Source of the DNA: Candidatus Latescibacterota bacterium
GTDB lineage: Bacteria > Latescibacterota > UBA2968
Direction: 5' to 3'
Assembly (NCBI GenBank): GCA_965207885.1
Contig: OZ242311.1
Span: 4,448,001-4,512,000 of the forward strand
Length of the DNA stretch: 64,000 nt
In this document: positions 19,755 to 51,423 of the stretch, one piece after another
Numbering within the stretch: the first letter of the stretch is position 1
How the letters are laid out: each line of letters starts with the position of its first letter
Notes under the pieces: generated by a model
Seen by the model: only the letters and a program-made list of their open reading frames with translations
The model's database searches: none
What the model was told of the DNA's origin: nothing
Position numbers and translations under genes: made by a program

Positions 19755-19795
19755 AAAGACCACGAATCGAAATATCTCGCGGTCTTTCTTTTTTT
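19755..19795 (+). terminator. Rho-independent terminator
   Basis: AAAGACCACGA...TCGCGGTCTTT followed by a T-run. Confidence 0.6.
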
Positions 19796-23827: not shown

Positions 23828-23833
23828 ATACCC

Positions 23834-25060: not shown

Positions 25061-25167
25061 ATCAACGCTCTTTTCTATTTTTGTCGTGTGCCTGAGTCAA
25101 TCTCAAAATTCTCCGCATCCGAACTCATGTTAGGGACTCTCCTACATGGCATCCAGTCCCTGGAGCT

Positions 25168-27681: not shown

Positions 27682-27731
27682 GTTGAACTTTCCACAAAAG
27701 GCAGTCGTCAATCTTTTGACGGCGTAAACCT

Positions 27732-28559
27732 TTACACCTGAGCACTGACCTTATGCACCTTCAAATTCGCATATTCGCCAATCAAAGGTGCCATCTGTCG
27801 AAAACCGATCTTGCCATCGCCCAACAAAGGCCCATACGTCTGACCATCATCAAACCAGTGGAAAATCTTCAAATCGCGAATATAAAAAACAACCTCAGCA
27901 CCGCATTTGATCAGCGTAATCGGGTATGGCGGTCTGGCATCGACAACAGAAGGCAGGGGATCAGCTCCCTGACTGACCATGTGAAAACCATAACTCTTGC
28001 GCAAATTGCAAACCTGAAAAGCGCGTTCTTTGAGTGCCTTCCGCCGAAAATAAGACACGTGCAACGCATTGATATCGCTGCTGTGATACTGCTTGTATTC
28101 GCCAGCCCGAGGCACCAATGACGAATCAAATATATCTTCACCGCCTCGTCCCAAAGCAGAAAAAAACAGAATGCACAACCCCGGCTCGCGCACCGGCCAA
28201 AAATCCCACGTCACGGCAATATCCGCTGGAAAATCTTCGGGACACCAAAAAACAAAATTTGCCGCCTGCCCTTCCCCGGGATCGCGGCGATTTTCCATTC
28301 GCATGCGACCATTTGGAAAGGTCACTTCGGCATCCCCCTCCAGCCGAAACCCTTCAATATCTGACGCGGAAGACAGCGGATTGTCATAAAGCAATTCGCC
28401 AAATTCAAAATTATCCATAACACCTCTCCTGATGCGTTGACGTATCGGGTTCTTCGCCGCATGGACAGCCTGTCTCAAAAACAGCGGCGCACCGCCAAAA
28501 GATACTGAAAACAACGCCATCTTGCTGCATTTTATGAACGCCCTGCGAGTCCATTCCAT
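27732..28559 (-). CDS. YesU/DUF1961-like protein, with an in-frame Tat-signal extension (alternative start 28418)
   Basis: ANFVFWCP..FP, HVSYFRR, NLRKS.GF, GKIGFRQM; two RBS-ATG pairs. Confidence 0.75.
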   Translation of the reverse strand: MEWTRRAFIKCSKMALFSVSFGGAPLFLRQAVHAAKNPIRQRIRRGVMDNFEFGELLYDNPLSSASDIEGFRLEGDAEVTFPNGRMRMENRRDPGEGQAANFVFWCPEDFPADIAVTWDFWPVREPGLCILFFSALGRGGEDIFDSSLVPRAGEYKQYHSSDINALHVSYFRRKALKERAFQVCNLRKSYGFHMVSQGADPLPSVVDARPPYPITLIKCGAEVVFYIRDLKIFHWFDDGQTYGPLLGDGKIGFRQMAPLIGEYANLKVHKVSAQV

Positions 28560-28575
28560 CACTTTAGTCTCCTGT

Positions 28576-30213: not shown

Positions 30214-30277
30214 ATTGTACTCCTCCCGTAGATAAAATCAGCCATCAATCTAAGTCCAATGCTCGCTGGAACATCTA

Positions 30278-31214
30278 GGTAGTGTCTGAAAAGTCGTAAA
30301 GTATGTATTTTAGTTGCAGCATACGCCCTAAACCAAGGAGTATGATATGCAACGGAGATATGAACTGCGCGACGAGGCTTGGCATCTGATCCAAGACCTG
30401 TTCCCACCGCCGAAGAAGATGGGTCGTCCCCGTCGGGATGATCGTACATTATTCAACGGGATCTTCTGGATATTGTGTTCAGGTGCAGCTTGGCGCGACC
30501 TGCCAGAACGATATGGTCCTTGGCAGACAGCCTTTGACCGATTCTGCAAATGGAAACAGGATGGCACCTTTGATCGCATTGTAGAAAAGCTACATCTCAA
30601 ATTGGGTGAAGATGGTCTTTTAGATTATGCGACCTGGATGATGGATGCAACCCATATTCGAGCCACACAAGCCGCGGCAGGAGCGAAAAAAAAAGGGCAA
30701 AAAGGGTGAAGAAGAGCCCCCAGATCACGCTTTAGGACGCTCTCGTGGCGGTTTGACCACGAAAATCCATCTTCTTTGCGATGCAGTCGGGCATCCTTTA
30801 GCAGTGGATCTTCTCCCTGGTAACCAGTCAGAATCCACACAGGCTGAAAGGCTACTGTCAAAGGTATGCATACCCACCAAACGAGGGCGTCCAAGAAACC
30901 GACCCAAGTATCTGGTAGCTGATAAATCTTATGATGTCTCACGCATCAGAGTCTATCTACGCAAACGGGGTATCAAGGCTGCTATCCCAAACAAGGCGAT
31001 TCCCAAAGGCAGAAAACGGCGTAAGAGAGGACCACGGCCTAAGTGTGATAAAAGATTATATGCCAAACGCAATATCGTGGAGCGTCTCTTTGGTTGGCTT
31101 AAACACTGCCGACGGATTGTGACCCGATTTGAAAAAAAGGCGACTCATTTTCTCACTATGGTCAAGCTGGCCTGTATCAGACAACTCTTCAAAGCTTACT
31201 TTTCAGACACTACC
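30278..31214 (+). mobile_element. IS5-family insertion sequence, copy 2 (937 bp; ORF translations identical to copy 1)
   Basis: Same TIRs, TA duplication and length. Confidence 0.95.
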
Positions 31215-31217
31215 TAA
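30347..31217 (+). CDS. IS5-family transposase (two ORFs joined at an A9 run)
   Basis: Identical translations to copy 1. Confidence 0.9.
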
Positions 31218-31422: not shown

Positions 31423-34400
31423 CTATTCTCCAAACAGGACGAGCGAAGTGCCCACGGCAGTCTGGATGCCAACGTAGTTCGCCGGTAATGAAGGTGCTGT
31501 TCCCAGACTAACGGTGGTCGATGTTGTCCCGCTCTGCGTCACTGTTATGGGTTCGCTTTGGATATTGCCCTTTGAAATTGTGACTTCTGTGATCGCATTG
31601 CCATCCCCATCGGTCAGTGTGCCGTCTGTTGCCGATAGCTCAACAGTCATATCAAACGGTGCACCCTGAGCAATACTGACCACAACAGTGGCGGGTCCCT
31701 GTGCTGTCAAGTCCGCATTGTCTATGCGTTTCAATTCCAGCGTGAGGGTGAAGGGCGCACCCGTATTATTAGATACATCCAGATTACCCAGATTGGACAA
31801 TCCATAGAACAAACTATCGGGAAGCGTACTCAACGTGTTGTTCTTAAGATTCAAGGTTCGCAGGTTGGACAAATCAGCGAACACCCTGTCGGGTAATTGG
31901 CTCAACTGATTGCGTTCAAGACGCAGGACTTGCAGACTGGTCAGACCAGAGAACACGTTATCTGGCAGTGCGCTCAACTGGTTTCTGTCAAGCTCTAACC
32001 TTTGCAGGTTGGTCAGATCAGAGAACACATTAGCGGGTAGCGCACTCAACTGGTTTCTGTCAAGATTCAGGGTTTGCAGACCGAACAGACCAGAGAAATC
32101 ATTTTCCTGTAAGGTAGTGATACTTTCATTGGTAAAACCAAGAGTTCCTGAGATATTTTCCAGGTGTGAGTCTGTGACCAGAGCACAGTCGGTAATCCCG
32201 GCTATCGCAGACAATATCTCGGTTTGAACAGCCGCTGTGCGGGTACATATCCCTGGCGCGATTTCGGTCATCCCTACTACAGTATCTGACCACCCACTTG
32301 TCCCTTCGTCATTCTCTGCTCTGACCTGTACATCGTAGCTTGTATCTTGACTTAGGCTGCTAATCGTATATTCAAGAGCACCATCACCACTCTCCCACGC
32401 ATCCTCTGCCACCGTCCAGTTGGCATCATCAGTCTCATCCTCACTTGTCAGAATATGACGCACATCATAAGCACTGATCGCTGGTCCTGTATTCGCCGGT
32501 GCTTCCCATTCCACCATCAGACTATTAAAGGTCGAGGATGCCACTGTCGGGGCATCAGGCACGCCGGGAGCCTCACCATCCACATCAGTCAGGGTCACTG
32601 TGAGCGTATCCCTCGCTGTCAAAGCTCGACCACCCGTGCCGCTTGTCGCAGACACGAACACGATATATTCATTATTGCCCGCTGCATTGGCTGGGTCGGT
32701 AACCGCCACATCAGCAGGTGCCTCATAGTTGGGGGCTACCTTGAACGTCAACACACCCGTAGATGCTCCAATGGAGAACTGTGCGCCATCTGCACCAGAC
32801 TCAATGCCATAACGCTCGATATCATCCCCCATATCATCATCCGTCGCACTCACAGTCACAAGCGCTGATGTGGTATTCTCATTCACAGTGATCGGTGAGA
32901 TAGATGTGATCACGGGGGCCACGTTGGTAGTAATTTTGATATCGTCTAATCGGAAAATCGTATCTCCAAAGTCCTCCGTTGTGGTGAATATGATTCCGTC
33001 TACATCTTCCCAGGTGGCATTGCTCCGCCCTAATCTGCTCAGGGGAATGCTAACCTGGTGCCACTGACTGTCCCATGAAGTTATGCCTATATTCTCTTCA
33101 TTGACGCGGTATCCCCTGTTCGAATCCATGTCGAAGCGGACTCTGAACTCGGTTCCTGGGGTATCGCCCCATACCCAGAATTCAAAGACATAGTCGCCAA
33201 CCAGGAAGGACAAGTCGAAGTTCGGGGTAAAATCGAACCTCACAATATCGCTCTTTTTGGCTCCTGACCAGTAAATGCTTTTGTTCCCCACGACCGCCTC
33301 TGTATCATCGTCGAACGTGAGCCATCCCCTGCTATAAAGTTTGCCGGAAATACCCTCTCCGAGGCTATTGAGGCCATCGGTATATATCTCAAAGCCAGCC
33401 TGCTTAGACACGGTCACCCATTCAAGCTGAGGGGGGACGTTCAGCCCGAGTGCCCCGACTATAGAGATATCGAGATTGTAGTCGAAGTGATCATCACCCT
33501 CATTTTCAAATATTTTGAAACCTCCTACGCCGTATTCCCAGAGCGTCCAGGCAATATTGTTGTCTTCCATATAAGTTCGCGCTTCTCGAATCCAGGCTGC
33601 GCGGTCATCTGGGGGGGCATATGGCCCATAGACGCCAAACTCGCCGCACCACACAGGCACGTTGCGATCCTCAGCAAAATCGACAGCGTTCTTGAGCCCA
33701 TTCTGCAATTTCTCTAACGTCCCCTTCGTGTGATAATCTTCAAGGATTTCGGGCACGGGGTCCGGCATGCGGCTGGCATCATACGGCCAGGGCACGCCCC
33801 TGAGATCCTTAAATCTGTCTATCCAGCCAGCCCCCTGGTGCGTAAACTCTCCAGGATTGTAGATATGAAATGTGTAGATAAGGTTATCGTCTGTATATTC
33901 CGGCAGCGTTCTGAGGGCGCCCGAATGGAATTTGCCACCTGTGACCACGATGGTGTGTGTGTTATCATGGGCGCGAATGGTGTCGATAACTGCCTGCTGA
34001 ATCGGATTCCAAATACTGGGTTGGATGTTTGGCTCGTTGAAGACTTCGTACAACACCAGCTTAGAGCGATTTTTATAGCGCTCGGCGATCTGAGGCCAGA
34101 CCTGGACGAGATATTCCCTGGTATCACTCCGGTTATTTTGGTCTGTTTCTTCCGCGGCTAGTTTATGGTTGGTGTGATTGTCGAGGATAATGTAGAGGCC
34201 GAGTTCCTCTGCCCAATCGACTATCTGGTCGAGATAGGTGAAAAAGAGAGGGTCTATGATGTGTGAGGGTCCCCCACTGGTCAGAGGAACAAAGGGCAGT
34301 CGCACAACGTCGCATCCAAGGGTCTTAACGTTCACAAACGTCTGCCGATCATAGGTTATGAAAGGATGCGTCCTGGGACGCTGCATAAACACAGTGAGAT

Positions 34401-37400
34401 TTACGCCGCGACTAAAAGGAGGGAGTCGCCGCTTCGGAGTGGCGGTCGCCTGGTTGGAGACGAGGCTGTTGCCCACGACATTCACAGCGCGGACCTCGAA
34501 GGTATATTCCGTGTCGAAGGTCAGATCCCCTACGGTGTAGGTCGTGGCCGTGCCCCCAGTGGTCGTCCAGTTCGGATCCCACGTTGTACCATCATCGTCG
34601 CTGGCGCGGTATTCGTAGCGCGTGATGGGTGAGCCTCCCTCGTCCGCAGGCGCGATCCAGGACAGTGTTACCAAAAAGCCAGAAGTGGCAATCAGGTCTG
34701 TGGGTGCGCCCGGGACGGTGACCAGTGTTGTCCCACTTACTGAGTCTGACCAATCACTTATGCCTTCATCACTTTCTGCTCGCACCTGCACTTCATAGCT
34801 TGTATTTGGACTTAAACTACCAATCGTGTAGGAAAGATCACCACCATCTGTCTCCCACGCATCCTCAACCACTATCCAGTTGGCATCATCTGTCTCATCC
34901 TCACTGGCCAGAATGTAGCGCACATCGTAAGCTGTGATTTCAGGGCCTGTGTTCTCTGGCGCATTCCATTCCACGGTCAGACTATTAAAGGTCGAAGATG
35001 CTACCGTCGGCACATCAGGTACACCGGGCACTTCTGTGTCTACATCAGTCACTGTCACCGTAATCGTCTGCGTCGCTGTCAGAACACGCGCATCTGCACC
35101 ACTCGTTGCTTCGACAATCACGATGTATTCATTATCACCCGCTCCACTGACAGGGGCTGTGCTGGCCACATCGGTAGGGGCCTCATAATTGGGTGCCACC
35201 TTGAACGTCAACACACCTGTTTGGTCATCAATCTCAAACTGTGATCCATCGGCACCTTCAACAATGCTATAACCCTCTACGTCATCATCGCTATCTGCAT
35301 CAGTCGCACTGACTGTGACAAGGGCACCTGTGCTATTCTCTGCCACGCTGATCGGCGAGATAGTAGCAATCACTGGGGTCACATTCGCACTTGTTGTCCC
35401 ACTCACTGAAGAAGACCAGTCACTCGTGCCTTCGTCACTTTCTGCTCTAACCTGTATATCATAGCTCGTATTCTGGCTCAAGCCGCCTATCAGATATTCG
35501 AGATTGCCATCACCACTCTTCCAGGCCTCTTCCTTCACGGCCCAGTTGGTATCATCTGTCTCATCCTCACTTGTCAGAATATGACGTACATCATAAGCAC
35601 TGATCGCTGGTCCCATGTTCGTAGGCGCTTCCCATTCCACGGTCAGACTATTAAAGGTCGAGGATGCCACTGTCGGGGCATCAGGCACACCAGGGGCCTC
35701 ATCCACATCACTCACTGTCACGGTCAGTGTATCTCTTACCATCAACTCACGCGCATCTGTCCCACTCTTCACCTCCACCACCACGATGTATTCATTATTC
35801 TCTCCTGCATTGTTGTTCGCCGAATTGGATATATCCTCAAACGCTACATCGGTAGGTGCCTCATAGTTGGGAGCCACCTTGAAACTCAACACACCCGTCT
35901 GATCATTGAGATCAAACTGTGCTCCATCACCAACTTCAACGATACCATACTCTATGATGCTATCATTCTCATCTGCATCTGTTGCACTGACTGTGACAAC
36001 ATCACCTGTGCTGTCCTCACTGAATGTAACCGCAGAGACACTCGTGAAGACAGGGGCGACATTAGCTTCGGTTGTCCCTGCTACAGTATCTGACCACCCA
36101 CTTGTTCCTTCATCATTCTTTGCACGCACCTGCACATCATAGCTTGTGTTCTGCACCAAACTGCCAATCGTGTATTCAAGATAGCCGCCATTAACACTCG
36201 TCCATACATCTTCGGTCACTACCCAGTTAGCATCTGCCTTATCCGTTGCACTACTGAGGATGTGGCGCACATCATACGCACTAATCTCAGGACCCGTGTT
36301 CGTCGGCGCTGTCCAACTCACCGTCAAGTTGTTAAACGTTGAAGCAGAGACTGTCGGTGTATCAGGCACTCCAGGAGCTTCGTTCACATCCTCTACAGTC
36401 ACCGTAAGCGTATCCCCTGCTGTCAACGCACGATCACCTGTCCCACTCGTCGCCTCAACAATCACAATGTATTCATTATTCTCTGCTGCATTGGCTGGAT
36501 CGGTAACAGCCACATCTACAGGATCTTCATAGTTCGGCGCTGTATTAAATGTCAATACACCACTCTGATCATCAATCTCAAACTGTGACCCATCTGCATC
36601 ATCAACAATGCCATAACTCTCAATGTCATCATCGGCATCCCTATCTGTTGCACTCACGGTAGCTATATCTGCTGTGCTGTTCTCATTCACACTGAACGCT
36701 GAGGCACTCGTGATGACGGGTGCCTCATTGGCCTGTGTCATCCCCACTACAGCATCAGACCAGTCACCAGTGCCCTCATCACTTTCTGCCCTAACCTGCA
36801 CATCATAGCTTGTATTCTGAGACAGTAAACTGATCGTATACTCAAGACTACCACCATCACTACTCTTCCAAGCATCTTCCTTCACGGTCCAGTTGGCATC
36901 ATCTGTCTCATCCTCACTTGTCAGAATATGACGCACATCATAAGCACTGATCGCTGGTCCCGTGTTCGTAGGCGCTTCCCATTCCACGGTCAGACTGTTA
37001 AAGGTCGAGGATGCCACTGTCGGGGCATCAGGCACACCAGGTGCTTCGTTCACATCACTCACTGTCACGGTCAGTGTATCTCTTACCATTAACTCACGAT
37101 CACCTGTCCCGCTCTTCACTTCCACCACCACGATATACTCATTGTTGCTTGCTGCATTGGATGGATCAGCTACCGCTACATCCTTAGGATCCTCATAGTT
37201 TGGATCCGCTTTGAACGTCAGTACACCACTTTGTTCAGTAAGCGCAAACTGCTCTCCATCTGCTGCATCAACAATCTCATACCCTGTAATACTATCATCG
37301 TCATCGGCATCACTCGCAGTGACTGTGACCAGTGCCCCCGTGCTGTTCTCTGCCACACTGATTGGAGAGATAGTGGCGATGACTGGCGCCACATTCGCTC

Positions 37401-39480
37401 TTGTTGTCCCACTCACCGAAGAAGACCAGTCACTGGTGCCTTCATCACTTTCTGCTCGCACTTGAATATCATAGCTTGTGTTCTGCTCCAGACTGCCAAT
37501 CGTATATTCAAGGTCATCACCATTATTACTCGTCCACACTTCCTCAACCACTGTCCAGTTGTCATCTGCCTTATCTGATGCATTGGTCAGAATGTAGCGG
37601 ATATCATACGCGCTTATATCAGGACCTGTGTTATCAGGCGCACTCCATTGCACCTTTAAGCTATTCACTGTTGCCTCTGCCACTGTTGGTGCATCAGGTG
37701 CTCCAGGGGCTTCGTTCACATCCTCCACAGTCACCGTAAGCGTATCTCTACCTGTCAACTCACGACCACCTGTCCCACTCTTCACCTCCACCACCACGAT
37801 GTATTCATTATTCTCTCCTGCATTGTTGTTCGTCGAATTGGATACATCCTTAAACGCTACATCGGCAGGTGCCTCATAGTTGGGAGCCACCTTGAAACTC
37901 AACACACCTGCAGCTTGAACAATCTCGAACTGTGATCCATCTGCACCTTCAACAATGTGATACCCTGTGATGTTGTCATCTGCACTGGCATCTGTCGCTG
38001 TGACTGTGACAATGTCCGCTGTGCTGTTCTCACTAAATGTAACCTCAGATAAACTCGTGAATACAGGAGGCGTATTATGGCCGGTAGTAGCTCGAATCGC
38101 TGGAGACCAATTACTTTTTCCGCCCTCAAAGACGGTTCTAACTTGAAACTCATAAGTCGTCGATCTCCCCAGGCCGACGACTGTATAAGACATATCAGAT
38201 CTGGTAAAATTGACGGGTATAATGGTATTATAGTCCTCATCAACCTTTCTATATTGGATCTCATAGCCAATAATAACATAATCATTCGCAGGTGGTGCTC
38301 TCCAGGTGATCTCAACAAAAACAGTCCCAATTGGTTTCACTCTTGCGAAGATAGGTTTATCCGGCGTGAGTGGATGTATAATATTTATAGTAACTTCAGC
38401 AGTAGCAACACCACCATTACTGTCATCTACAACGATGGTGAACGTGTAAACCTCTTTATTGAACACCGCACCTGCTTTCGTCTTAATATGACCGAACCAA
38501 TTAACCGTAAAATTGGAAGCATCATCACCCATTAAAGAATAATTCAACTTGTCATCATTGGGATCATAGGCTCTTACAGGCGGATCAATTTCCAGTATGA
38601 TAGACGGGTCTAAAGTAGATGGGTCTAAAGTAAAAGAGAGAACAACAGAATTTTTGGGAAACACCGGTGGCATATCCATATCTGTCACCGGCTCAACAGA
38701 GATATGAAAATAGGACATATAATACTGTTCGCCATCAACCACATCTATTTCTATCTTGAAAACGCCCACCTTCTCCGGGATTCCGACGACCGTCATCATG
38801 GTCTTACCCGTCGTAGAATCATAGTGAAAGTCATCCATACGTATGCCGCGTGGGAAATTTGCAATGCCCATCTGATCATAATGTGGCGTGCCACCAGATA
38901 CAGTAACAAGGACATCTGGCATGGCAGTACCAAATGCAAGTTTTAGAGTATCGGAGAGTGTTAAAATTCTACCAGACTCTTTTATGGCTATTTCTATGTG
39001 AACAGAAGACTCACCGTCAACTGCACCAGTTTGTTGATTTTTTACTAACTCTTGCCCTGATACGATATTTTTATCTCCCAAAACCTTCACAGGATGCGCT
39101 GAGATAGCGGTCGGCGTATGATTCACCACTTTGCCATAGTTTTTCGCAAAAATTAAAAAATCGGCAAAATCAACTGTCTCATTGCCATTGATGTCGTATT
39201 TTGCATTGTATTTTTCATCTTCATCCTGTGTCCCAAAGTGGTTGACAAACGCCCGAAAGTCATGTGAATCGACAATCCCATTTCTATCAAAATCTAAAGA
39301 AGATACGATCGCAGTTTGCAATTCTACATTTAGTATTTCACTGGCAACCTGTCCATTCCTGCCAGGTTCAGCACGCACCAACCGAATCAAAAAAAGAGGC
39401 CATGAGAAAATCAACAGAGTGATGAGTATGAGTGCAAAGATCAAGGCAGGTACTGAACACCTGTTAAGCAGCTTTGACAT
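31423..39480 (-). CDS. Giant (~2685 aa) surface protein: dockerin/EF-hand pair, alternating cadherin-FN3 repeats, GH5 glycoside hydrolase, CBM-like domain, LRRs
   Basis: AGGAGG RBS; signal peptide; NYEAP cadherin and W.AP..Y.VQVRA FN3 repeats; RGVNL..VRLP..LDNH..YEVFNEP..FHIY..GEFG..W (GH5); L.L..NQLS.LP..VF LRRs. Confidence 0.88.
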   Translation of the reverse strand: MSKLLNRCSVPALIFALILITLLIFSWPLFLIRLVRAEPGRNGQVASEILNVELQTAIVSSLDFDRNGIVDSHDFRAFVNHFGTQDEDEKYNAKYDINGNETVDFADFLIFAKNYGKVVNHTPTAISAHPVKVLGDKNIVSGQELVKNQQTGAVDGESSVHIEIAIKESGRILTLSDTLKLAFGTAMPDVLVTVSGGTPHYDQMGIANFPRGIRMDDFHYDSTTGKTMMTVVGIPEKVGVFKIEIDVVDGEQYYMSYFHISVEPVTDMDMPPVFPKNSVVLSFTLDPSTLDPSIILEIDPPVRAYDPNDDKLNYSLMGDDASNFTVNWFGHIKTKAGAVFNKEVYTFTIVVDDSNGGVATAEVTINIIHPLTPDKPIFARVKPIGTVFVEITWRAPPANDYVIIGYEIQYRKVDEDYNTIIPVNFTRSDMSYTVVGLGRSTTYEFQVRTVFEGGKSNWSPAIRATTGHNTPPVFTSLSEVTFSENSTADIVTVTATDASADDNITGYHIVEGADGSQFEIVQAAGVLSFKVAPNYEAPADVAFKDVSNSTNNNAGENNEYIVVVEVKSGTGGRELTGRDTLTVTVEDVNEAPGAPDAPTVAEATVNSLKVQWSAPDNTGPDISAYDIRYILTNASDKADDNWTVVEEVWTSNNGDDLEYTIGSLEQNTSYDIQVRAESDEGTSDWSSSVSGTTRANVAPVIATISPISVAENSTGALVTVTASDADDDDSITGYEIVDAADGEQFALTEQSGVLTFKADPNYEDPKDVAVADPSNAASNNEYIVVVEVKSGTGDRELMVRDTLTVTVSDVNEAPGVPDAPTVASSTFNSLTVEWEAPTNTGPAISAYDVRHILTSEDETDDANWTVKEDAWKSSDGGSLEYTISLLSQNTSYDVQVRAESDEGTGDWSDAVVGMTQANEAPVITSASAFSVNENSTADIATVSATDRDADDDIESYGIVDDADGSQFEIDDQSGVLTFNTAPNYEDPVDVAVTDPANAAENNEYIVIVEATSGTGDRALTAGDTLTVTVEDVNEAPGVPDTPTVSASTFNNLTVSWTAPTNTGPEISAYDVRHILSSATDKADANWVVTEDVWTSVNGGYLEYTIGSLVQNTSYDVQVRAKNDEGTSGWSDTVAGTTEANVAPVFTSVSAVTFSEDSTGDVVTVSATDADENDSIIEYGIVEVGDGAQFDLNDQTGVLSFKVAPNYEAPTDVAFEDISNSANNNAGENNEYIVVVEVKSGTDARELMVRDTLTVTVSDVDEAPGVPDAPTVASSTFNSLTVEWEAPTNMGPAISAYDVRHILTSEDETDDTNWAVKEEAWKSGDGNLEYLIGGLSQNTSYDIQVRAESDEGTSDWSSSVSGTTSANVTPVIATISPISVAENSTGALVTVSATDADSDDDVEGYSIVEGADGSQFEIDDQTGVLTFKVAPNYEAPTDVASTAPVSGAGDNEYIVIVEATSGADARVLTATQTITVTVTDVDTEVPGVPDVPTVASSTFNSLTVEWNAPENTGPEITAYDVRYILASEDETDDANWIVVEDAWETDGGDLSYTIGSLSPNTSYEVQVRAESDEGISDWSDSVSGTTLVTVPGAPTDLIATSGFLVTLSWIAPADEGGSPITRYEYRASDDDGTTWDPNWTTTGGTATTYTVGDLTFDTEYTFEVRAVNVVGNSLVSNQATATPKRRLPPFSRGVNLTVFMQRPRTHPFITYDRQTFVNVKTLGCDVVRLPFVPLTSGGPSHIIDPLFFTYLDQIVDWAEELGLYIILDNHTNHKLAAEETDQNNRSDTREYLVQVWPQIAERYKNRSKLVLYEVFNEPNIQPSIWNPIQQAVIDTIRAHDNTHTIVVTGGKFHSGALRTLPEYTDDNLIYTFHIYNPGEFTHQGAGWIDRFKDLRGVPWPYDASRMPDPVPEILEDYHTKGTLEKLQNGLKNAVDFAEDRNVPVWCGEFGVYGPYAPPDDRAAWIREARTYMEDNNIAWTLWEYGVGGFKIFENEGDDHFDYNLDISIVGALGLNVPPQLEWVTVSKQAGFEIYTDGLNSLGEGISGKLYSRGWLTFDDDTEAVVGNKSIYWSGAKKSDIVRFDFTPNFDLSFLVGDYVFEFWVWGDTPGTEFRVRFDMDSNRGYRVNEENIGITSWDSQWHQVSIPLSRLGRSNATWEDVDGIIFTTTEDFGDTIFRLDDIKITTNVAPVITSISPITVNENTTSALVTVSATDDDMGDDIERYGIESGADGAQFSIGASTGVLTFKVAPNYEAPADVAVTDPANAAGNNEYIVFVSATSGTGGRALTARDTLTVTLTDVDGEAPGVPDAPTVASSTFNSLMVEWEAPANTGPAISAYDVRHILTSEDETDDANWTVAEDAWESGDGALEYTISSLSQDTSYDVQVRAENDEGTSGWSDTVVGMTEIAPGICTRTAAVQTEILSAIAGITDCALVTDSHLENISGTLGFTNESITTLQENDFSGLFGLQTLNLDRNQLSALPANVFSDLTNLQRLELDRNQLSALPDNVFSGLTSLQVLRLERNQLSQLPDRVFADLSNLRTLNLKNNTLSTLPDSLFYGLSNLGNLDVSNNTGAPFTLTLELKRIDNADLTAQGPATVVVSIAQGAPFDMTVELSATDGTLTDGDGNAITEVTISKGNIQSEPITVTQSGTTSTTVSLGTAPSLPANYVGIQTAVGTSLVLFGE

Positions 39481-39521
39481 ATTACACCTCCTAAAGACAG
39501 ACACCATCCTATCTGTAGTGA

Positions 39522-39538
39522 TGCAATATGTGTGCCAA
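39522..39538 (-). promoter_or_regulatory. sigma54 (-24/-12) promoter of the giant gene
   Basis: TTGGCACACATATTGCA, exact TGGCAC-N5-TTGCA consensus. Confidence 0.9.
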
Positions 39539-39631
39539 CATGACTTTCTCTAAATCATTTTACACATAAAGTATTATTTTTATTTGAGATAAAAATTTAA
39601 AAACAAAAAAGAGCCAGACCGATTTTTATGC

Positions 39632-39748
39632 CATTAGACGATATATAGTCCAATGATATAATCAGACTGACTCGTAATTTTAGGTAATTTTACTTATTAT
39701 CAAAGCTTTAAGACAAATGGATTAAATATAGTCCCTGGACTATATTTA
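39632..39748. promoter_or_regulatory. Candidate enhancer (UAS) palindromes
   Basis: CATTAGAC-N8-GTCCAATG (39632-39655) and TAAATATAGTCC-CT-GGACTATATTTA (39723-39748). Confidence 0.6.
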
Positions 39749-39835
39749 GTCTTTATTATAGACATTTTTTACCTGTTTAGACCGATTTCATGTCTTTTAA
39801 GACGGCATAGCGTCAAAAAATAATCAAACTAATCC

Positions 39836-42800
39836 TTACAAACCAGGACGTTCAATACCCAACTTTTTCATTTTGCTGTACAGAGTAGAAGGCGGTAATC
39901 CCAGCAGAATCGCCGCACCCTTTGCTCCTTTTACCCGCCAGTTGGTGTCTTGAAGCACTTCAATGAGATATCGGCGTTCAAATTCCTCCAAAGGCACGAC
40001 TTTGGGATCTTGAGAAACTGGCGACGCATTATCTTCATTGTCAGGAGCTATATGAGAACCATATAGTCCGAGATCTCGCACTTCAGTTTGAGAACCGCGG
40101 CACACGATAACCGCTCGTTGTATGATATGCTCCAGTTCCCGCACATTTCCCGGCCAATAGTAGGTTTGCAACCCCTCTATAACATCTGGCGTCAAGGCAC
40201 CGACTTGCTTTCCCAGATGTGTAGCTATGCGAGTCTTGAAAAATTCGGCCAGACGCGGTATATCCTCCTTGCGCTCGCGCAGGGGGGGGAGAATAATTGG
40301 AAAAACCTGGAAACGATAATACAGATCCTCGCGAAAAGTACCTGCACTGACCATCTCCTGCAGGTCGCGATTGGTCGCTGCCACAATCCGCGCCTGCACC
40401 CTCAGTATCTCGCTACCCCCAACGCGCTCAAAAGTACGCTCTTCCAGCAAACGCAACATCCTGGCCTGCGTTTTCGGAGCCATATCACCAATCTCATCCA
40501 AAAAGAGTGTGCCGCCCTTAGCCAGTTCCACCTTGCCCAGCTTGCGAGACACTGCGCTGGTAAACGCCCCCTTCTCATGACCAAAAAGTTCACTATCGAT
40601 CAGCGTTTCAGGCAGTGCACCGCAGTTGACCTGGATAAAAGGACCATCGCAATGGGGACTCAGCGCGTGTAACACCCGCGCAGCCAATCCCTTACCCACA
40701 CCTGTCTCACCCAGAATCAGCACAGTTATATCAGTGGATGCCACCTCCATGAGTCTGATTTGAAACTGGCGCATAGCTTTGCTCTGCCCGATAAACTCTT
40801 TGCCAACACCATCTGTGTTGTTGAGCACGGAGGTCAGCGCGCTGATGCGCGGATCCATCTCTACTGCAAGTTGCACCTGCGCCATCTCTGAGTAATTGAG
40901 GTCGCGATCTACAGCCCTGACCTGAAAGGTGTAGTCTCCCGGTGGCAGGTCCCGGTAATAGACCCGCATCTCTCGGATCGCTGGCTGCCAGTCGTGGTCA
41001 TAGCCCTTCAAACGATAGACATAGAGCATGTCGCGGGGATGAGTGGAAAAACTCAGGCCTTTATACTCGAAAATCACACTCTGCTCTGTCGTAGATAGGA
41101 CTCTTTCCTCTAAGTTCTCATAGACCTTATCCGCGACGACCTGGAGCAGGCGAACAGTGGGAGGCGTCTGTCGTGGGCGGTAGCGTATTATGGCCTCCCC
41201 AGCAGTGCCAAACCAGAAAGCTCCGTTGCGGTCTTCGAGTATTTGGAAAATTGATCCTATATGCGGTGACTTGATGGTCTGAAAAATCTGACCATCGTAG
41301 TGAGCTACACCCCCGTCCATGCCGAGCCAGAGATCTCCTCGCGAATCCTCAAATAAGCAATGGATGCGGTTGCACGGCAAGCCATCTTCGGTGGTAAAGT
41401 TGCGAAAAACAACACCATCAAAGCAACTGAGACCTCTTTGAGTGGCGATCCACAAATTGCCGTGTCGGTCTTCTAATAAGTCGGTAATCCGGTTATCTAA
41501 CAACCCATCTGCAACAGTATAAAAAGAAATACCGTCTTCTATGTGCCACCGCCCGATACCCTTGCCACTGCCGAAGGGATTGTAGGTGCTCACACTAAAC
41601 CAGAATTCACGGTTGCGCCTGGCGACCAGAGCACTAATGTAGTTGAATTGCTCTTCTTTCTTCTCAAAAACGGTTTGGCACTGCCCATCCCGGTAGTAAA
41701 CGATCTGCAGTGGTCTGGCAAACATCTCTTCTGTTTTTTTTCTAAGACCATTTTCCCACTGTCCAAAAATAAGTTGTCCATCCCGGCTCTCGGCGATTGC
41801 GCTGACACCCACTTCACCAGTACCTACGGCAATGTCCATTTTTTGAAAGGCCTGCCCATCGTAGCGAAACAGACCGTTATCCCCTCCAAACCACAGGTGT
41901 CCATCGCGGTCCTCGTAGATGGCGGAACAACTATTGAGATCAAGACCTTGTTCTGCTCCAACAAATTCAAAGTGCTCGCCATCGAAGCGCGCCAGGCTTT
42001 TGGTTGCGGGGCACAGAAAAGGCTCGGAAAATCCGATCCATATATCTCCCTGTCGATCCTGCAACATCCGTGATATTCTACTATCATCTTCGGGAAAATT
42101 CGTACCAAAATCGAAAATACTGATACTATACGCATCGTATAGTCCTAAACCGCCGCCCCATGTGGCGAACCAGAACTGATACTCGCGATCCTGAAATACG
42201 GCGTTGACAACGGGATGGGGCAGGCCATCGACAAGGGTAAACCTGCCGAATCCATCACCATTCCAGTAGAGGACCCCTGTCGAGGTACAGAACCACATCC
42301 GACCTTCGCGGTCACACTGAATTTTGCGTAACTCACCACCCAAATTCACCTCAACAGACTGAAAGGCACCATCGGCATAGCACCACAGTCCATCTCTGCG
42401 CTGCGATCGACCAATCCACACCTTGCCAGTATGATCCTTGCCCACAGTATAGCTACTCTGGTCTGGTGGAAAACCCTCTTTCTCGTCGTATCGATAAAAG
42501 GATTCTCCATCGAAGCGGATGAGGTAGTCAAAGCCAAACCACAGGTGGCCTTCCATATCCTGGGTGATGCCCCAACACTGATTGGTCCACTCAGGAGAAG
42601 GCGGCTGCTCATAGTGCTGTAGATAGAGCGGAATCAGGTCGTGGAAAGCTGTGCCCTCGTAATACCCCAGAGTACTGATACCACCAAACCATATACGGCC
42701 CTTATTATCTTCGTAGATGAATAACACGGATCGGTCTGCGATCCCATCGTCCTCCAAATGATGGAAATTTATCCCATCGTACCAGCAGACCCCATTCATT

Positions 42801-43045
42801 GTACCGAACCATAGCCGCTTCTGACTATCCAAATGGATGGCAAAAACTCGATCGCTACACAAACCTTCCTGCTCGGTAAACGTCTCGAACTTGTCCCCAT
42901 CAAAGCGGCTAACACCACTATCCCAGGTAGCAATCCAGAGGCAACCCTCGCTGTCTTCTGCGATATGTTCGGTGCGCACCCCAGCCAGACCATTGGCAAG
43001 GGAATAAGTCCGCCAGGTGCCCTTTCTGTCGAGTGACTCGATCAT
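39836..43045 (-). CDS. sigma54-dependent activator with N-terminal beta-propeller (Reg_prop) and YYY domains
   Basis: ED..G.LW..T..G repeats; [23 protein letters not shown]; [29 protein letters not shown]-terminal HTH. Confidence 0.92.
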
Positions 43046-43221
43046 GGCTAAGAAACCTCATGATATAGGTGAAAGAAAACTCTACCCCGCCCCAAAATAT
43101 CATGCAACATCCCAACCAAAATATTTATCCCAGGCGAGTGAATCATTAACCCTATTACTTTGACGCTTTACCTCTCCAATGGTTCGGATTCCTAAAGACA
43201 ATATCAGTTCTGTTTGAAAGG

Positions 43222-43238
43222 TGCAATATGCGTGCCAA
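43222..43238 (-). promoter_or_regulatory. Second sigma54 promoter, upstream of activator 1
   Basis: TTGGCACGCATATTGCA. Confidence 0.85.
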
Positions 43239-43330
43239 CGTGAATATCTCGAGGCAATTGTAATCATAACAGATTATTTTTACTCAAGATATGATTTTTT
43301 TAAAAAATAAAAAACCAGACTGTACTTCAT

Positions 43331-43362
43331 CTAATAATGGACAATAGACCGTCCATTATTAG
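43331..43362. promoter_or_regulatory. Candidate enhancer palindrome
   Basis: CTAATAATGGAC-N8-GTCCATTATTAG, ~110 bp from the -24 box as in module 1. Confidence 0.65.
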
Positions 43363-43444
43363 TCAATCTGGCTTCTTTGATTCTGCTATATGTAGAGTTT
43401 TACAATAAAGGTCTCTATATCGCATTAAAAATGATATATCGCAT

Positions 43445-46400
43445 TCATGAAGAACGTCTAATACCCAATTTTTTCATTCGGCTGTACAGGGTAGAAGGCG
43501 GCAATTCCAGCCGCGCCGCCGCGCCTTTTGTTCCCTTTACCTTCCAATTAGTAATTTCGAGCACTTCGAGAATATAGAGACGTTCAAATTCATCCAAAGG
43601 CACGATTTCGCGGTCTTGAGAATCCGATAAGGAAGTCCACACCAGGTCCAGAGCAGCGCCTTTGATTCGCGAACGATACGATCCAAGATCCTCCAATTCG
43701 ATCCGAGCCCCCTGGCACACGGTTACTGCTCGCTGCATCGCATGCTCCAGTTCCCGCACATTTCCAGGCCAATCGTAGGCTTGAAACTCCTCTATAACAT
43801 CTGGCGTCAAGGGACCTATCTCCTTGCCGATATGAGCCGCCATGCAAGCCTTGAAAAATTCAGCCAGATCCGGTATATCCTCCTTGCGCTCGCGCAGAGG
43901 TGGCAAATAAAGCGGAAAACCATAGATGCGATAATAGAGGTCCTCGCGAAAAGCACCTGTGCTGACCATCTCCTCCAGGTTGCGATTGGTCGATGCTACA
44001 ATGCGCGTCTGCGCTTTTAGTGTCTCGCCCCCCCCAACGCGCTCAAACGTTCCCTCTTCCAGCAAGCGCAATAGCCTGGCCTGCGTTTCCAGAGTCATAT
44101 CGCCGATCTCGTCCAAAAAGAGCGTGCCATCTTTGGCCAGTTCCACCTTGCCCAGCCTGCGAGAAACTGCACTGGCAAAAGCCCCTTTCTCGTGACCAAA
44201 CAGTTCACTATCGATCAATGTCTGGGACAGGGCACCGCAGTTGACCTGAATAAAAGGACCACCATTATGGGCACTCTGTTCGTGTAATACCCGCGCAGCC
44301 AATCCCTTACCCACACCCGTCTCACCCATAATCAGCACGGATAGATCAGTCGATGCTACCTCCTTGAGTCTGGTTTGAAACTGGCCCAGGGCCGTACTCT
44401 GCCCGATAAATTTGTTGCTCTCCTGGCTATTGAGTGCCGCTGTCAGAGCTTCAATACGCAAGTCTGGTTCTATTGAGATTTGCACCTGTGCTATCTCTGA
44501 GTAATTGAGGTCGCGATCTACAGCCCTGACCTGAAAGGTGTAATCGCCCGGTGGCAAATCCCGGTAATGCGCCCTCATTTCTCGGGTCGCTGGCTGCCAG
44601 TCGAGGTCGTGTCCCTCCAGGCGATAGACATAGAGCATATCGCTGGAACGAGTAGAAAAGCTCAGGCCCTTGTACTCGAAAATCACATTCTGCTCTGTGA
44701 TAGATAGGATGCCTTCTTCTATGTTCTCATGGACCTTATCGGTAATCACCTGCAGCAGGCAAATCCGAGGCGGGGTTTTTTGTTGCCTATAGCGCACCAG
44801 AGAATTTTGGACTGTCCCGAACCAAAAGACTCCATCACGGTCTTCGAGTATTTGAAGAACAGGTCCTATATGCGGCGAATTGATGGTCTGGAAAAGTTGA
44901 CCATCGTAGTGAGCCACGCCCCCGTCTGTGCCAATCCAGATGTGGCCTCGCTGATCTTCTAACAAGCAGCGGATGCGGTTGCTCGGCAAACCGTCTTCAG
45001 TGGTGAAGGTGTGGAAGGTGCTACCATCAAAGCGACTGAGACCGCTTTGGGTAGCAATCCATACGCTCCCATGCAGGTCTTCCAGCAGGTCCTCGACTTT
45101 GTCATCTATCAGCCCATCTTCAATCCCATAAAATTTAAGGCCATCTTCGGAATGCCAGCGCGCAAAACCCTTATCTTTGTCGAAAAAATTTGGGTAATGA
45201 ATAAAAAAATAAAACTCGCCATTACGCCCGGCAATCACCGTGCCGATGCGGCCGAAAGGATCTCTCTGTACATTAACCTCAAGAATAGTTTGTAACTGAT
45301 CGTCTCGCTGGTAAAAGAGCCTCAATGGGCTACCCCAAAAGTCTCTTTTTCTTGTTATTTTTTCTTTTCCCCAATCGCCAAAAAGAAATCTCCCTTGCGA
45401 ATCCTGGGCAATTGCACAAATACCACTTTCGCCTAAACCTGCAGTTGTTTGCATTTTTTTGAGCTTATCTCCATCATAGCGGAACAAGCCATTGCCACCT
45501 CCAAACCACAGGTCCCCGGCGGAGTCCGCGTAGATGGCGAAACAGTTGTTGATGTCAAAACCATCCTCAGTGCCTACGAATTCAAAGTGCTCGCCATCAA
45601 AGCGAAAAACGCTTTTCTCCACACGGTTGAGAAAGGGAGCTATATACCCGACCCATATATCTCCTCGCCTGTCTTGCACGATCTGTGAGATCTCAACCAT
45701 ATTGTTGTTTTCAAAAACCGCCGCATTGTGATCAAAAACACTGATACTATGTGCATCGTAAAGCCCGACGCCCCCCCAGGTAGCAAACCAGAACTGATGC
45801 TCGCGGTCCTGGAACACAGCTTTGACTGCGGGATGGGGCAAGCCATCGGCAACGGTAAACCTGCTAAACCCATCTCCATCCTGATAGAACACCCCATCTG
45901 AAGTGCAAAACCACATCCGCCCTTCCCTGTCGCACTGAATTTTGCGCAGGCTGTCACCCAAATCTACCTCAACAGATTGGAAGGTGCCATCGGCATAGTA
46001 ACAGAGTTTATCCTGGTATCTACGATGACCGATCCAAACATAGCCGGTAGAGTCCTGCGCCACAGCATAGGCCGTGTTGCCTTTCGGAAAACCATCTTTC
46101 TTCTCATAGCGATGAAAGGATGTGCCGTCGAAACGGATGAGGTAGTTAAATCCAAACCACATCTGACCTTGTGGATCCTGAGCAATACCCCGACACTGAC
46201 TGGGCCAGAGAGGAGAAGGCGGCTCCTCATAATGCTGAAGGTAGATCGGAATTAAATCGCGGAACACAGTGCCATCATAATATCCCAGAGTCCTGTGACC
46301 GCCACACCATATACGCCCCTCCCTGTCTTCGTAGATGAACTGCACAGCACGCCCTGCGATCCCATCGTCCTCCAAATGGTGGAAATCTGCTCCGTCATAC

Positions 46401-46663
46401 CAGCAGACCCCATTTAGTGTACCAAACCACAATCGCTTCTGACTGTCCTGTAAAATAAAATAAACGCGGTCGCTAATCAGACCATCCTGTCGCGTAAAAT
46501 TCTGGAACTCGTCTCCGTCAAAGCGGCTGGCCCCATTGTCCCAGGTGGCGAACCAGAGATAGCCCTGGCTATCCTCGGCGATGTGTTCAATGCGCATCCC
46601 AGCCAGGCCATCTGCCATAGAATAAGTTTGCCAGGTACCCGTGCGGTCAAGTGACTTGATCAT
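43445..46663 (-). CDS. Paralogous beta-propeller/YYY sigma54 activator with GAFASA loop
   Basis: Collinear with 39836-43045 over its full length; start MIKSLDR aligns with MIESLDR. Confidence 0.9.
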   Translation of the reverse strand: MIKSLDRTGTWQTYSMADGLAGMRIEHIAEDSQGYLWFATWDNGASRFDGDEFQNFTRQDGLISDRVYFILQDSQKRLWFGTLNGVCWYDGADFHHLEDDGIAGRAVQFIYEDREGRIWCGGHRTLGYYDGTVFRDLIPIYLQHYEEPPSPLWPSQCRGIAQDPQGQMWFGFNYLIRFDGTSFHRYEKKDGFPKGNTAYAVAQDSTGYVWIGHRRYQDKLCYYADGTFQSVEVDLGDSLRKIQCDREGRMWFCTSDGVFYQDGDGFSRFTVADGLPHPAVKAVFQDREHQFWFATWGGVGLYDAHSISVFDHNAAVFENNNMVEISQIVQDRRGDIWVGYIAPFLNRVEKSVFRFDGEHFEFVGTEDGFDINNCFAIYADSAGDLWFGGGNGLFRYDGDKLKKMQTTAGLGESGICAIAQDSQGRFLFGDWGKEKITRKRDFWGSPLRLFYQRDDQLQTILEVNVQRDPFGRIGTVIAGRNGEFYFFIHYPNFFDKDKGFARWHSEDGLKFYGIEDGLIDDKVEDLLEDLHGSVWIATQSGLSRFDGSTFHTFTTEDGLPSNRIRCLLEDQRGHIWIGTDGGVAHYDGQLFQTINSPHIGPVLQILEDRDGVFWFGTVQNSLVRYRQQKTPPRICLLQVITDKVHENIEEGILSITEQNVIFEYKGLSFSTRSSDMLYVYRLEGHDLDWQPATREMRAHYRDLPPGDYTFQVRAVDRDLNYSEIAQVQISIEPDLRIEALTAALNSQESNKFIGQSTALGQFQTRLKEVASTDLSVLIMGETGVGKGLAARVLHEQSAHNGGPFIQVNCGALSQTLIDSELFGHEKGAFASAVSRRLGKVELAKDGTLFLDEIGDMTLETQARLLRLLEEGTFERVGGGETLKAQTRIVASTNRNLEEMVSTGAFREDLYYRIYGFPLYLPPLRERKEDIPDLAEFFKACMAAHIGKEIGPLTPDVIEEFQAYDWPGNVRELEHAMQRAVTVCQGARIELEDLGSYRSRIKGAALDLVWTSLSDSQDREIVPLDEFERLYILEVLEITNWKVKGTKGAAARLELPPSTLYSRMKKLGIRRSS

Positions 46664-46861
46664 AAAAAAGAAACCTTGCGATATTGGTAAAAGAAAACCG
46701 GATAGATTCAACTCTTTCAAGACAGACCAAACTCTTTTGCTGCAAAAAAAATTTGTGTAATATATGTGCTAATGTGAATTTATTCAAGCAATTATATGTT
46801 ATAAGATATTATTTTTTATGGGGCATAATGGATCGCGCATCGCCTACATTCATATCCATCG

Positions 46862-50775: not shown

Positions 50776-50812
50776 AAAAGATAGCTTTCATCCGTTCTTA
50801 CACTCTTCAAAC

Positions 50813-51409: not shown

Positions 51410-51423
51410 AAAAAAAACCCTCG

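Follow-up and report, generated by a model that had tools for sequence, protein, structure and literature searches.

Soluble double-propeller sensors joined to predicted sigma-54 activators, and an associated cassette of putative terminator and promoter, beside the gene of a giant predicted surface protein of Latescibacterota

Activators that work on RNA polymerase carrying sigma-54, a textbook example of AAA+ machines gated by signals, sense their signals through receiver, GAF, PAS, V4R, ACT or PRD domains, a catalogue that to our knowledge is regarded as well known. Large double propellers are used as sensors by the hybrid two-component systems (HTCSs) of the gut bacterium Bacteroides thetaiotaomicron (BT4663, BT3049 and BT4673; PDB 4A2L/4A2M, 3V9F and 3OTT/3VA6), in which the sensor is periplasmic, lies between membrane segments, and is linked to a kinase, a receiver and an AraC-type helix-turn-helix (HTH) domain. 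Herein we describe a 64,000-nt stretch of contig OZ242311.1 from a Candidatus Latescibacterota bacterium (the window), wherein two paralogous genes, termed act1 and act2, join a sensor of this type directly to a sigma-54 AAA+ ATPase and precede a gene for a giant protein. We consider act1 and act2 to be soluble, cytoplasmic sigma-54 enhancer-binding proteins in which the N-terminal regulatory domain has been replaced by a double propeller plus a Y_Y_Y domain, and we assign a probability of about 0.7 to this reading together with the regulatory circuit proposed below.

The regulator and giant-gene features are all co-oriented on the minus strand, in the order act2, cassette, act1, cassette and giant gene, the last coding for a protein with GH5, cadherin, fn3 and LRR domains. 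The principal features are as follows.

43445..46663, minus strand: act2 (protein P0002), 1,072 aa from the ATG at 46663; predicted soluble Reg_prop/Y_Y_Y protein with sigma-54 AAA+ and HTH_8 domains, loop GAFASA
43222-43237, minus strand: predicted sigma-54 promoter of act1, TGGCACGCATATTGCA, 176 bp upstream of act1
39836..43045, minus strand: act1 (protein P0001), 1,069 aa; predicted soluble Reg_prop/Y_Y_Y protein with sigma-54 AAA+ and HTH_8 domains, loop GAFTSA
39522-39537, minus strand: predicted sigma-54 promoter of the giant gene, TGGCACACATATTGCA, 42 bp upstream of the ATG at 39480
31423..39480, minus strand: gene for the giant protein (P0003), 2,685 aa from the ATG at 39480; predicted to be secreted or anchored

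Two of these start sites differ from those of the open reading frames (ORFs) as called. The act2 ORF was called as 43445..46720, opening at a TTG at 46720, and its true start is very probably the ATG at 46663 because the N-terminal sequence MIK[PS]LD is conserved family-wide. The giant-gene ORF was called as 31423..39507, and the ATG at 39480 is very probably the true start, given that AGGAGG is located 6 nt upstream of it and that the ATG at 39507 is only ~4 nt from the expected transcription start. For act1, the first start codon to follow an in-frame stop is the ATG at 43045. The two regulators are 66% identical (705/1073) and diverge most in the second propeller, where identity is 54% overall and 33% over residues 419-500.

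Both regulators carry the same set of Pfam domains, comprising fourteen Reg_prop repeats, Y_Y_Y, Sigma54_activat and HTH_8. In act1, the Reg_prop matches (E 6e-52) are accompanied by Y_Y_Y at residues 669-720, Sigma54_activat at 752-917 (E 3e-65), AAA_lid_14 and HTH_8. The scores for PF00158 are 219 bits for P0001 and 210 bits for P0002, against a cut-off of 20.2, and HTH_8 is located at residues 1019-1062 of P0001 (E 8e-9) and 1042-1085 of P0002 (E 9e-5). No HisKA, HATPase_c, Response_reg or AraC-type HTH domain was found in either regulator by Pfam at E<=0.01. The original prediction, made from the sequence alone, of two ~1070-aa paralogues that fuse propeller and Y_Y_Y to a sigma-54 AAA+ domain and an HTH agrees with these assignments.

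An AlphaFold2 model of act1 (63-row alignment, mean pLDDT 85.1) contains 56 strands that form 14 four-stranded blades between residues 10 and 622, followed by the Y_Y_Y domain as a sandwich of seven strands, by a linker in which residues 732-742 are helical, and by the AAA+ ATPase and the HTH. When the sensor was compared with solved structures by Foldseek, the best matches were BT4663 (4A2M, E 7e-42) and BT3049 (3V9F, TM-score 0.70), with the BT4663, BT3049 and BT4673 sensors spanning E 7e-42 to 1e-35 at ~18% identity, and these matches bear out the earlier assignment of an HTCS-type double propeller plus Y_Y_Y. A sequence search against solved structures also recovered 4A2L (phmmer, E 1e-40). 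FlrC, NtrC1, FleQ and LuxO are among the Foldseek matches of the ATPase, and sigma-54 AAA+ domains align with it at TM-scores of 0.86-0.96.

Neither P0001 nor P0002 contains a signal peptide or transmembrane (TM) segment, and no 19-residue window of either protein reaches a Kyte-Doolittle mean of 1.6. The peak value for P0001 is 1.18, and for comparison the giant protein peaks at 2.71 at residue 23. Windows of at least 1.6 occur in two of 120 close homologues, both within the propeller. The spacing between Y_Y_Y and the AAA+ domain is ~30 residues in act1 and act2 and lacks a hydrophobic segment. Hydropathy and Pfam therefore agree with the earlier claim that signal peptide, TM segment, kinase and receiver are all missing. 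Given that no membrane segment is evident, and yet these proteins must contact sigma-54 and DNA, we judge from the sequences that both are cytoplasmic throughout.

The opposite reading, that the sensor is periplasmic and that its signal or TM segment was missed through a wrong start or a frameshift, is exceedingly improbable and is already contradicted by sequence. It draws on the TTG-extended N-terminus of act2, where the P0002 hydropathy peak of 1.32 is confined to the doubtful 19-residue extension. Against it, no start codon is located between the in-frame stop and the ATG at 43045 of act1, and the MIK[PS]LD N-terminus is common to close homologues. No hydrophobic segment separates Y_Y_Y from the AAA+ domain; across 66 representative clusters, only ~12-20 residues lie between the two. 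Genuine membrane-spanning relatives look different, in that they have an N-terminal TM segment, a second TM segment after Y_Y_Y and a longer stretch before the AAA+ domain.

Rather than a one-off architecture, act1 and act2 represent a large family. Each of the best 120 matches in a collection clustered at 90% shows 65% identity or more along its full length and carries PF07494, PF07495 and PF00158, and wherever a database name is given it is generic, for example 'sigma 54-interacting transcriptional regulator'. Several pairs of different clusters agree in the length of their longest contig, which suggests several paralogues per genome. A genome scan recovered 10 full-length loci (given below as L numbers), of which nine are in Latescibacterota-labelled records and one is in a Gemmatimonadota-labelled record; three share chromosome OZ242320.1 and a further chromosome has two. 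At 50% identity, the best 150 representatives fall into the following architecture classes.

66 of 150: TM-less, with Y_Y_Y fused directly to the ATPase
16 of 150: sensor, TM segment, then ATPase (one of these, P0130, is a false call caused by a hydrophobic window inside the ATPase)
30 of 150: sensor, TM segment, other output
25 of 150: TM-less sensor with another output or none
3 of 150: longer sensor-ATPase gap without a clear TM segment
10 of 150: no match to the Y_Y_Y probe (six of the ten still match part of the propeller)

Pfam was run on 34 of the 150 representatives. Members of the membrane class carry a genuine Sigma54_activat domain, and 10 of 15 have HTH_8 (eight by Pfam, two by a script-based HTH match). 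The distance between their second TM segment and the AAA+ domain is ~60-250 residues, or ~80-100 where the HTH is kept. The soluble sensor also occurs with outputs other than sigma-54 ATPases, and these sequences suggest that the TM-less Reg_prop/Y_Y_Y sensor is a general input module. We likewise conclude from the collected sequences that cytoplasmic propeller sigma-54 activators are a large uncharacterised family that is expanded in Latescibacterota.

Two groups of relatives encoded outside the window were recorded in passing. P0211, P0216, P0228, P0234, P0271, P0156 and P0168 are predicted to consist of an N-terminal TM segment, periplasmic Reg_prop/Y_Y_Y, a second TM segment and then, after ~80-100 residues, Sigma54_activat and HTH_8. 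A membrane-tethered, ring-forming and DNA-binding ATPase is an unusual arrangement. In P0141, P0154, P0174, P0180, P0181, P0229, P0183, P0248 and P0172, a TM-less Reg_prop/Y_Y_Y sensor begins at residues 3-10, and the outputs of such fusions include HisKA/HATPase (with or without receiver and Hpt), SpoIIE phosphatases and GAF-PAS-HisKA_3 kinases.

No NCBIfam model scored above its cut-off for act1 or act2, the best being nifA with 330.6 bits against 528.85, and the best 25 matches for each protein are all below cut-off and span the AAA+/HTH part only. A check for prior description yielded no paper in the searchable literature that describes the Reg_prop/Y_Y_Y plus sigma-54 activator architecture, nor, among the papers listed, one covering both Latescibacteria and sigma-54. 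The terms 'propeller' and 'Reg_prop' are absent from the main text and 11 supplements of a 2025 survey of sigma-54 regulons (PMC12316311).

The sequence TGGCAC-N5-TTGCW occurs exactly twice in the 64 kb, against 0.10 expected, and one of 100 shuffles reached two. These sites are the two promoters listed above, and they confirm the earlier claim that a -24/-12 promoter lies downstream of each regulator, with one driving the giant gene. The earlier reading of the circuit needs a change here, in that the second promoter serves act1 itself, which points to a cascade or feedback loop instead of two parallel outputs. Elsewhere, strict sigma-54 promoters directly follow regulators in L001, L002, L005 and L009, and a promoter with a -24 GG and a -12 GC adjoins the regulator gene in L001, L002, L004, L005, L008 and L009.

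The region upstream of act2 has only a degenerate promoter (TAGCAC-N5-TTACA, 46756-46771), which is overlapped by a sigma-70-like TTGAAT-N17-TATATT sequence at 46759-46787. The cassettes that precede a first regulator (upstream of act2, L006_2144, L009_5770 and L013_3877) share TTGAAT-N17-TATATT and have a decayed -12 element. Because a scan of the window for sigma-70 motifs gave a count that is not above chance (13 versus 9.9 expected), the case for this site is its conservation in these four cassettes.

As a separate observation, the act1-type leader (43046..43221, minus strand, ~176 nt) shows 75% mean column identity across five loci, namely the window, L001, L003, L006 and L013, which include loci without a sigma-54 promoter. 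A predicted stem in the act1 leader encloses the ribosome-binding site; one covarying pair only was found, and there is no Rfam match.

The promoters are part of a conserved cassette of ~170 bp beside the regulator genes, which consists of a hairpin with a T-run, an AT-rich tract and a consensus -24/-12 promoter. The elements of a full cassette are, in order, an outer inverted repeat (GCCAGNCTGA ... TCAGNCTGGC), an apical palindrome (consensus TGGACGATATATCGTCCA), the T-run, ~60 AT-rich bases and TTCACNTTGGCAC-N5-TTGCA. When the window and the related loci were searched with a profile built from the window's three homologous upstream regions, 17 copies were detected at E<1e-10, both upstream and downstream of regulator genes. 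The corresponding features in the window are listed below.

46756..46820, minus strand: promoter-proximal half-cassette 5' of act2, nhmmer E 0.027
43307..43376, minus strand: hairpin and T-run after act2, outer stem CCAGAUUG/CAGUCUGG, RNA fold -31.1 kcal/mol, z -6.8
43331-43362, minus strand: apical palindrome after act2, CTAATAATGGAC-N8-GTCCATTATTAG, perfect 12-nt arms with a TGGAC-N8-GTCCA core
39720..39751, minus strand: second palindrome, GATTAAATATAGTCC-N2-GGACTATATTTAGTC, ~200 bp upstream of the giant-gene promoter, weak RNA fold, z -2.4
39606..39675, minus strand: hairpin and T-run after act1, RNA fold -27.2 kcal/mol, z -5.6
39635-39652, minus strand: apical palindrome after act1, ATTGGAC-N8-GTCTAAT

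Palindromes had been claimed at ~110 bp upstream of both promoters. They are present, with centres 109 and 106 bp upstream of TGGCAC, and of the two the copy after act1 is imperfect, with 39626-39661 forming an imperfect version of the act2-side palindrome. Their proposed role as enhancers is plausible but needs to be qualified, since they prove to be the apical helices of conserved hairpins with T-runs, marked by covariation and an excess of G.U pairs. Specifically, the T-runs read T6AT6 or T6GT5, and the predicted RNA folds of the cassette hairpins range from -27 to -34 kcal/mol (z -5.3 to -6.8). The consensus of 17 aligned copies has 19 pairs with 92.9% of cells paired, and 10 of the 19 pairs show compensatory changes on both sides. 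None of 500 shuffles reaches the observed values on any of five measures, and pairing falls to 29-50% when partners are slid. Among cells that are not Watson-Crick paired there are 44 G.U and 2 A.C, a bias that argues for selection on the sense-strand RNA because a double-stranded protein site would lack such a strand bias. On the simplest reading, the hairpins are at least intrinsic terminators, and termination is predicted at each; the element as a whole would be a terminator that may double as an enhancer. A simple terminator scan missed both long hairpins, which fall outside its loop and stem rules, and an Rfam search of the whole window gave no matches.

We consider the TGGAC-N8-GTCCA core, ~107 bp upstream of the -24 element, to be a plausible binding site and the best candidate for the HTH of the activators. 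The chief competitor, whose odds we place somewhat under even, is that the palindromes are only the tips of terminators and that activator sites are found elsewhere in the cassette, in the second palindrome at 39720-39751, or in non-palindromic sequence. The strand-specific G.U pattern and the T-run are fully explained by a terminator, and the hairpin is conserved with compensatory changes. Moreover, the palindrome is kept in three cassettes that lack a sigma-54 promoter (L003_5679, L006_5713 and L013_9187), from which it can be argued that its primary role is promoter-independent. The bare pattern TGGAC-N8-GTCCA, with at most one mismatch, is not enriched in the window (3 versus 1.64 expected), and the palindrome therefore owes its weight to where it is located and to the fact that related loci have it too.

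Several observations speak for a protein-binding role. An exact RGNC-N8-GNCY palindrome is located 85-109 bp upstream in 6 of the 11 strict promoters of regulator loci, so that the distance to the -24 element stays within a fixed range, and GGGC-N8-GTCC occupies the same place in three more. Two of the 11 promoters (L002, where it is disrupted, and L008) are without such a palindrome. L008 had been entertained as a case of a palindrome outside a terminator context and was dropped, because only an imperfect GGTC-N8-GTCC, too weak to count, is found 150 bp upstream. Within the hairpin, the free covariation of the flanking pairs contrasts with a GGACGA/TCGTCC core that keeps its sequence, and changes on both sides are absent from pairs 26/39 and 28/37. 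In L004, where the arrangement is divergent, the cassette is retained, including the hairpin, even though no gene precedes it on that strand, and this locus has two such palindromes 43 bp apart. The size and symmetry of the palindrome would also fit a dimeric Fis-type HTH, in keeping with what is known of NtrC sites. An HTH variant (STLFS[KR]IKRLGL) accompanies the GGGC variant of the palindrome in L005 and L009, a link that comprises two related loci and is confounded by descent.

The two regulators differ at the loop that contacts sigma-54. In act1 this loop reads GAFTSA, which retains Phe and Thr but has Ser in place of Gly, and this form is the family norm (97 of 123). In act2 it reads GAFASA, with the sigma-54-contacting Thr replaced by Ala. 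According to PMC3105312, more than 97% of enhancer-binding proteins have the Thr of GAFTGA, which contacts sigma-54, and its replacement by Ala abolishes activation in HrpR, HrpS and PspF, with assembly and ATPase activity unaffected in PspF. GAFASA occurs in 9 of 120 homologues, and GALASA or RAFASA occurs in two more. All 11 resemble act2 more closely than act1, and for the nine with GAFASA the mean identity is 78.8% to act2 versus 67.5% to act1. The same loop is found in L006_reg1 and L013_reg, and in both loci the act2-type gene occupies the same position, after the aminotransferase gene. Thus, the change is conserved in an act2-like subgroup and does not reflect decay.

These findings qualify the earlier description of act1 and act2 as two activators. 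Both retain full AAA+ and HTH domains, whereas an autonomous role for act2 is doubtful because its loop lacks the Thr needed in tested enhancer-binding proteins. The act2 protein is probably a partner or modulator and not an independent activator. It is alternatively conceivable, as was implicit in the original prediction, but in our view unlikely, that act1 and act2 are independent, redundant activators that respond to different ligands and each fire both promoters. Such redundancy would fit the completeness of these domains and the near-identical recognition helices (STLYSKMKK and STLYSRMKK), and the marked divergence of the second propeller, noted above, would suit different ligands. It conflicts with the Thr-to-Ala change in the contact loop of act2, which abolishes activation in the enhancer-binding proteins covered by PMC3105312, and with the conservation of this change in the act2-like subgroup, where the tandem of an act2-type and an act1-type (GAFTSA) gene recurs in L006.

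The presumed target, P0003, begins with a hydrophobic segment and continues with a dockerin-like domain, repeated cadherin and fn3 domains, a GH5 domain (residues 1720-1993), C-terminal LRR and an unmatched tail. Among solved structures, endoglucanases come nearest to the GH5 domain (CelH, E 2e-31), and the C-terminal ~100 residues have no Pfam match. Further genes follow on the same strand, separated from the giant gene by an insertion sequence (IS) element.

30273..31217, plus strand: IS element with DUF4096 and DDE_Tnp_1 ORFs, separating the polysaccharide genes downstream from the giant gene
23030..30213, minus strand: genes for a DUF4955 beta-helix protein, a DUF1961 (YesU-like) protein, a DUF4955 plus cadherin protein, a beta-helix protein and a short-chain dehydrogenase

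The DUF1961 protein is YesU-like (E 2e-76) and the DUF4955 protein is a beta-helix weakly similar to mannuronan epimerases; a literature search on DUF4955 or DUF1961 found nothing relevant. In L003 and L006, the DUF4955/DUF1961/beta-helix/dehydrogenase set directly follows an act1-type regulator, and in the window it lies beyond the giant gene and the IS element. Giant proteins with cadherin, fn3, LRR, FG-GAP or GH5 domains are encoded downstream in L001, L005 and L009; the gene after the promoter codes in L005 and L009 for a giant with LRR/FG-GAP/LDL-receptor repeats or cadherin/fn3 repeats, and in L002 for a 1,075-aa protein without a Pfam match. Upstream of the paralogues are PL8 lyases (L002, L009), a sulfatase (L013) and an ABC permease (L009).

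By association, this gene content supports a link to the use of acidic polysaccharides. A glycan ligand can be inferred only from the homology of the sensor to BT4663 and BT3049 and from the neighbouring polysaccharide-degrading genes. There is a substantial chance, if not quite an even one, that the propeller instead binds another metabolite or a partner protein and that the resemblance to the Bacteroides sensors reflects a shared scaffold only. The identity to BT4663 is only 18%, the fusion of TM-less relatives to many outputs (HisKA/HATPase/REC/Hpt, SpoIIE and PAS-GAF kinases) suggests a general-purpose input module, and none of the adhesin-like giants that form the targets in L005, L009 and L002 has a glycosidase domain. 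A glycan is favoured by the fact that all solved relatives are sensors of polysaccharide-utilisation systems, and by the PL8 lyases, sulfatase, YesU-like and beta-helix genes and GH5 target that adjoin the paralogues.

One of the related loci supplies a natural variant of the regulator. L001, from a close relative, is syntenic with the window; its DNA is 92-94% identical across the aminotransferase gene and across act1 plus flanking sequence, falling to 84% where the giant gene begins, and it has no act2 at the position seen in the window. Between its act1 orthologue and its giant gene is a gene for a 340-aa paralogue (9591-10613, plus strand) that consists of AAA+ and HTH_8 only, is complete by Pfam, and has the loop GAFTSA. 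This sensor-less gene has its own perfect sigma-54 promoter (9477-9492) and is followed by another cassette, and its product matches full-length regulators in their C-terminal parts at ~70-75% identity.

We propose that the circuit operates as follows. The act2 gene would be expressed from its sigma-70-like promoter, whereas act1 and the giant gene would remain silent until an activator hexamer remodels the sigma-54 holoenzyme at their promoters, producing a cascade or a positive-feedback switch. Because the hairpins are predicted to terminate transcription of the upstream gene, each downstream gene would depend on its own sigma-54 promoter. The propeller would bind a small ligand in the cytoplasm, for which the likeliest candidate is a product of the breakdown of an acidic or beta-linked polysaccharide that the cell has imported. 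By analogy with other enhancer-binding proteins, this ligand would free the AAA+ domain from an inhibition transmitted through the short helical linker at 731-750. The HTH would bind the TGGAC-N8-GTCCA core at the tip of the hairpin. The act2 protein could serve as a co-sensor or modulator, either by forming mixed rings with act1 or by competing for the same DNA site.

In addition to the strand-specific pairing, the promoter-less cassettes, the two promoters without a palindrome and the confounded variant pairing described above, several further points weigh against this proposal. The orientation of domains is unreliable in the AlphaFold2 model of act1, in which linker residues 736-748 have pLDDT values below 50. 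The family loop GAFTSA departs from the consensus GAFTGA, no rpoN gene is found within the 64-kb window, and the polysaccharide-related neighbours come from only 10 loci.

A wider and more speculative picture, which we would not expect to hold in full, is that Latescibacterota possess a paralogue-expanded system of cytoplasmic Bacteroides-type glycan sensors that directly gate a sigma-54 ATPase. Imported fragments of acidic polysaccharides from a host or the environment, read by each regulator, would thereby be coupled to the production of a giant eukaryote-like surface protein via a portable terminator-enhancer-promoter cassette. The GAFASA paralogues might then be threshold-setting, non-activating ring partners, and the membrane-spanning relatives might be evolutionary intermediates.

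Several other features of the window and the related loci were noted. The giant gene is internally repetitive, in that its cadherin and fn3 DNA is 73-79% identical to several shifted positions of the L001 orthologue. A second copy of the IS element (14560-15504, plus strand) has identical Pfam scores and the same orientation, at a spacing of 15,713 nt. The two copies are 100% identical over the reported 300 nt and bracket MacB/PIN/oxidoreductase genes and the DUF4955/DUF1961 genes; a third DDE transposase is located at 55142-56266. A pair of genes for a HerA-like protein (DUF87 plus HAS barrel) and NurA (49102-52644, minus strand) is found upstream of the aminotransferase gene and is syntenic in L001 and L003. 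The G+C content dips to 0.40 at 38001-40000 and to 0.42 at 18001-20000, compared with ~0.50 elsewhere, the former dip coinciding with the giant gene's 5' end and the AT-rich cassette. In L013, beyond an inserted transposase, a cassette and the conserved leader precede only a 107-aa ORF (9508-9831, plus strand), which begins like an act1-type regulator and is probably a truncated regulator remnant.

If the main features of this proposal are correct, a double propeller of 730 residues would serve as the gate of a sigma-54 AAA+ domain, an arrangement that was not found in the searchable literature. A mechanical question then arises as to how a large dimeric propeller controls ring assembly through a linker of 20 residues. 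As regards polysaccharide sensing, the Reg_prop/Y_Y_Y module is not tied to the periplasm, given that kinases, phosphatases and sigma-54 ATPases all occur as outputs of its TM-less forms. In an uncultured phylum, a putative circuit comprising sensor, terminator, promoter and a giant adhesin or glycosidase target can be read within a few kilobases, and the sensor-less paralogue of L001 and the Thr-less act2 are informative natural variants.

The 340-aa paralogue of L001 resembles PspF-type activators in having AAA+ and HTH_8 domains only, and differs from PspF in being under a sigma-54 promoter between a full-length regulator and a giant gene, with no PspA-like partner seen. The tandem act1 and act2 recall HrpR and HrpS of Pseudomonas syringae, which, according to PMC3105312, are co-dependent and likewise tandem paralogues with divergent GAFTGA loops, suggesting specialised subunits. 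Unlike act1 and act2, which both carry large sensors, HrpR and HrpS have no sensor domains, and both keep the Thr that is Ala in act2.

The Bacteroides HTCSs share with act1 and act2 the two seven-bladed propellers and Y_Y_Y (TM-score 0.65-0.70) and the association with polysaccharide-degrading genes, whereas the output in act1 and act2 is a sigma-54 AAA+ ATPase with a Fis-type HTH, reached without a signal peptide, TM segment, kinase or receiver. In overall plan, act1 and act2 resemble XylR and DmpR (V4R) and NorR (GAF), in which one cytoplasmic chain carries an N-terminal sensor, a short linker, AAA+ and HTH_8. DmpR (6IY8) is among the structural matches of act1, and the logic of inhibition relieved by ligand is presumably shared. 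However, the sensors of XylR, DmpR and NorR comprise ~200 residues, compared with the ~730-residue propeller module of act1 and act2.

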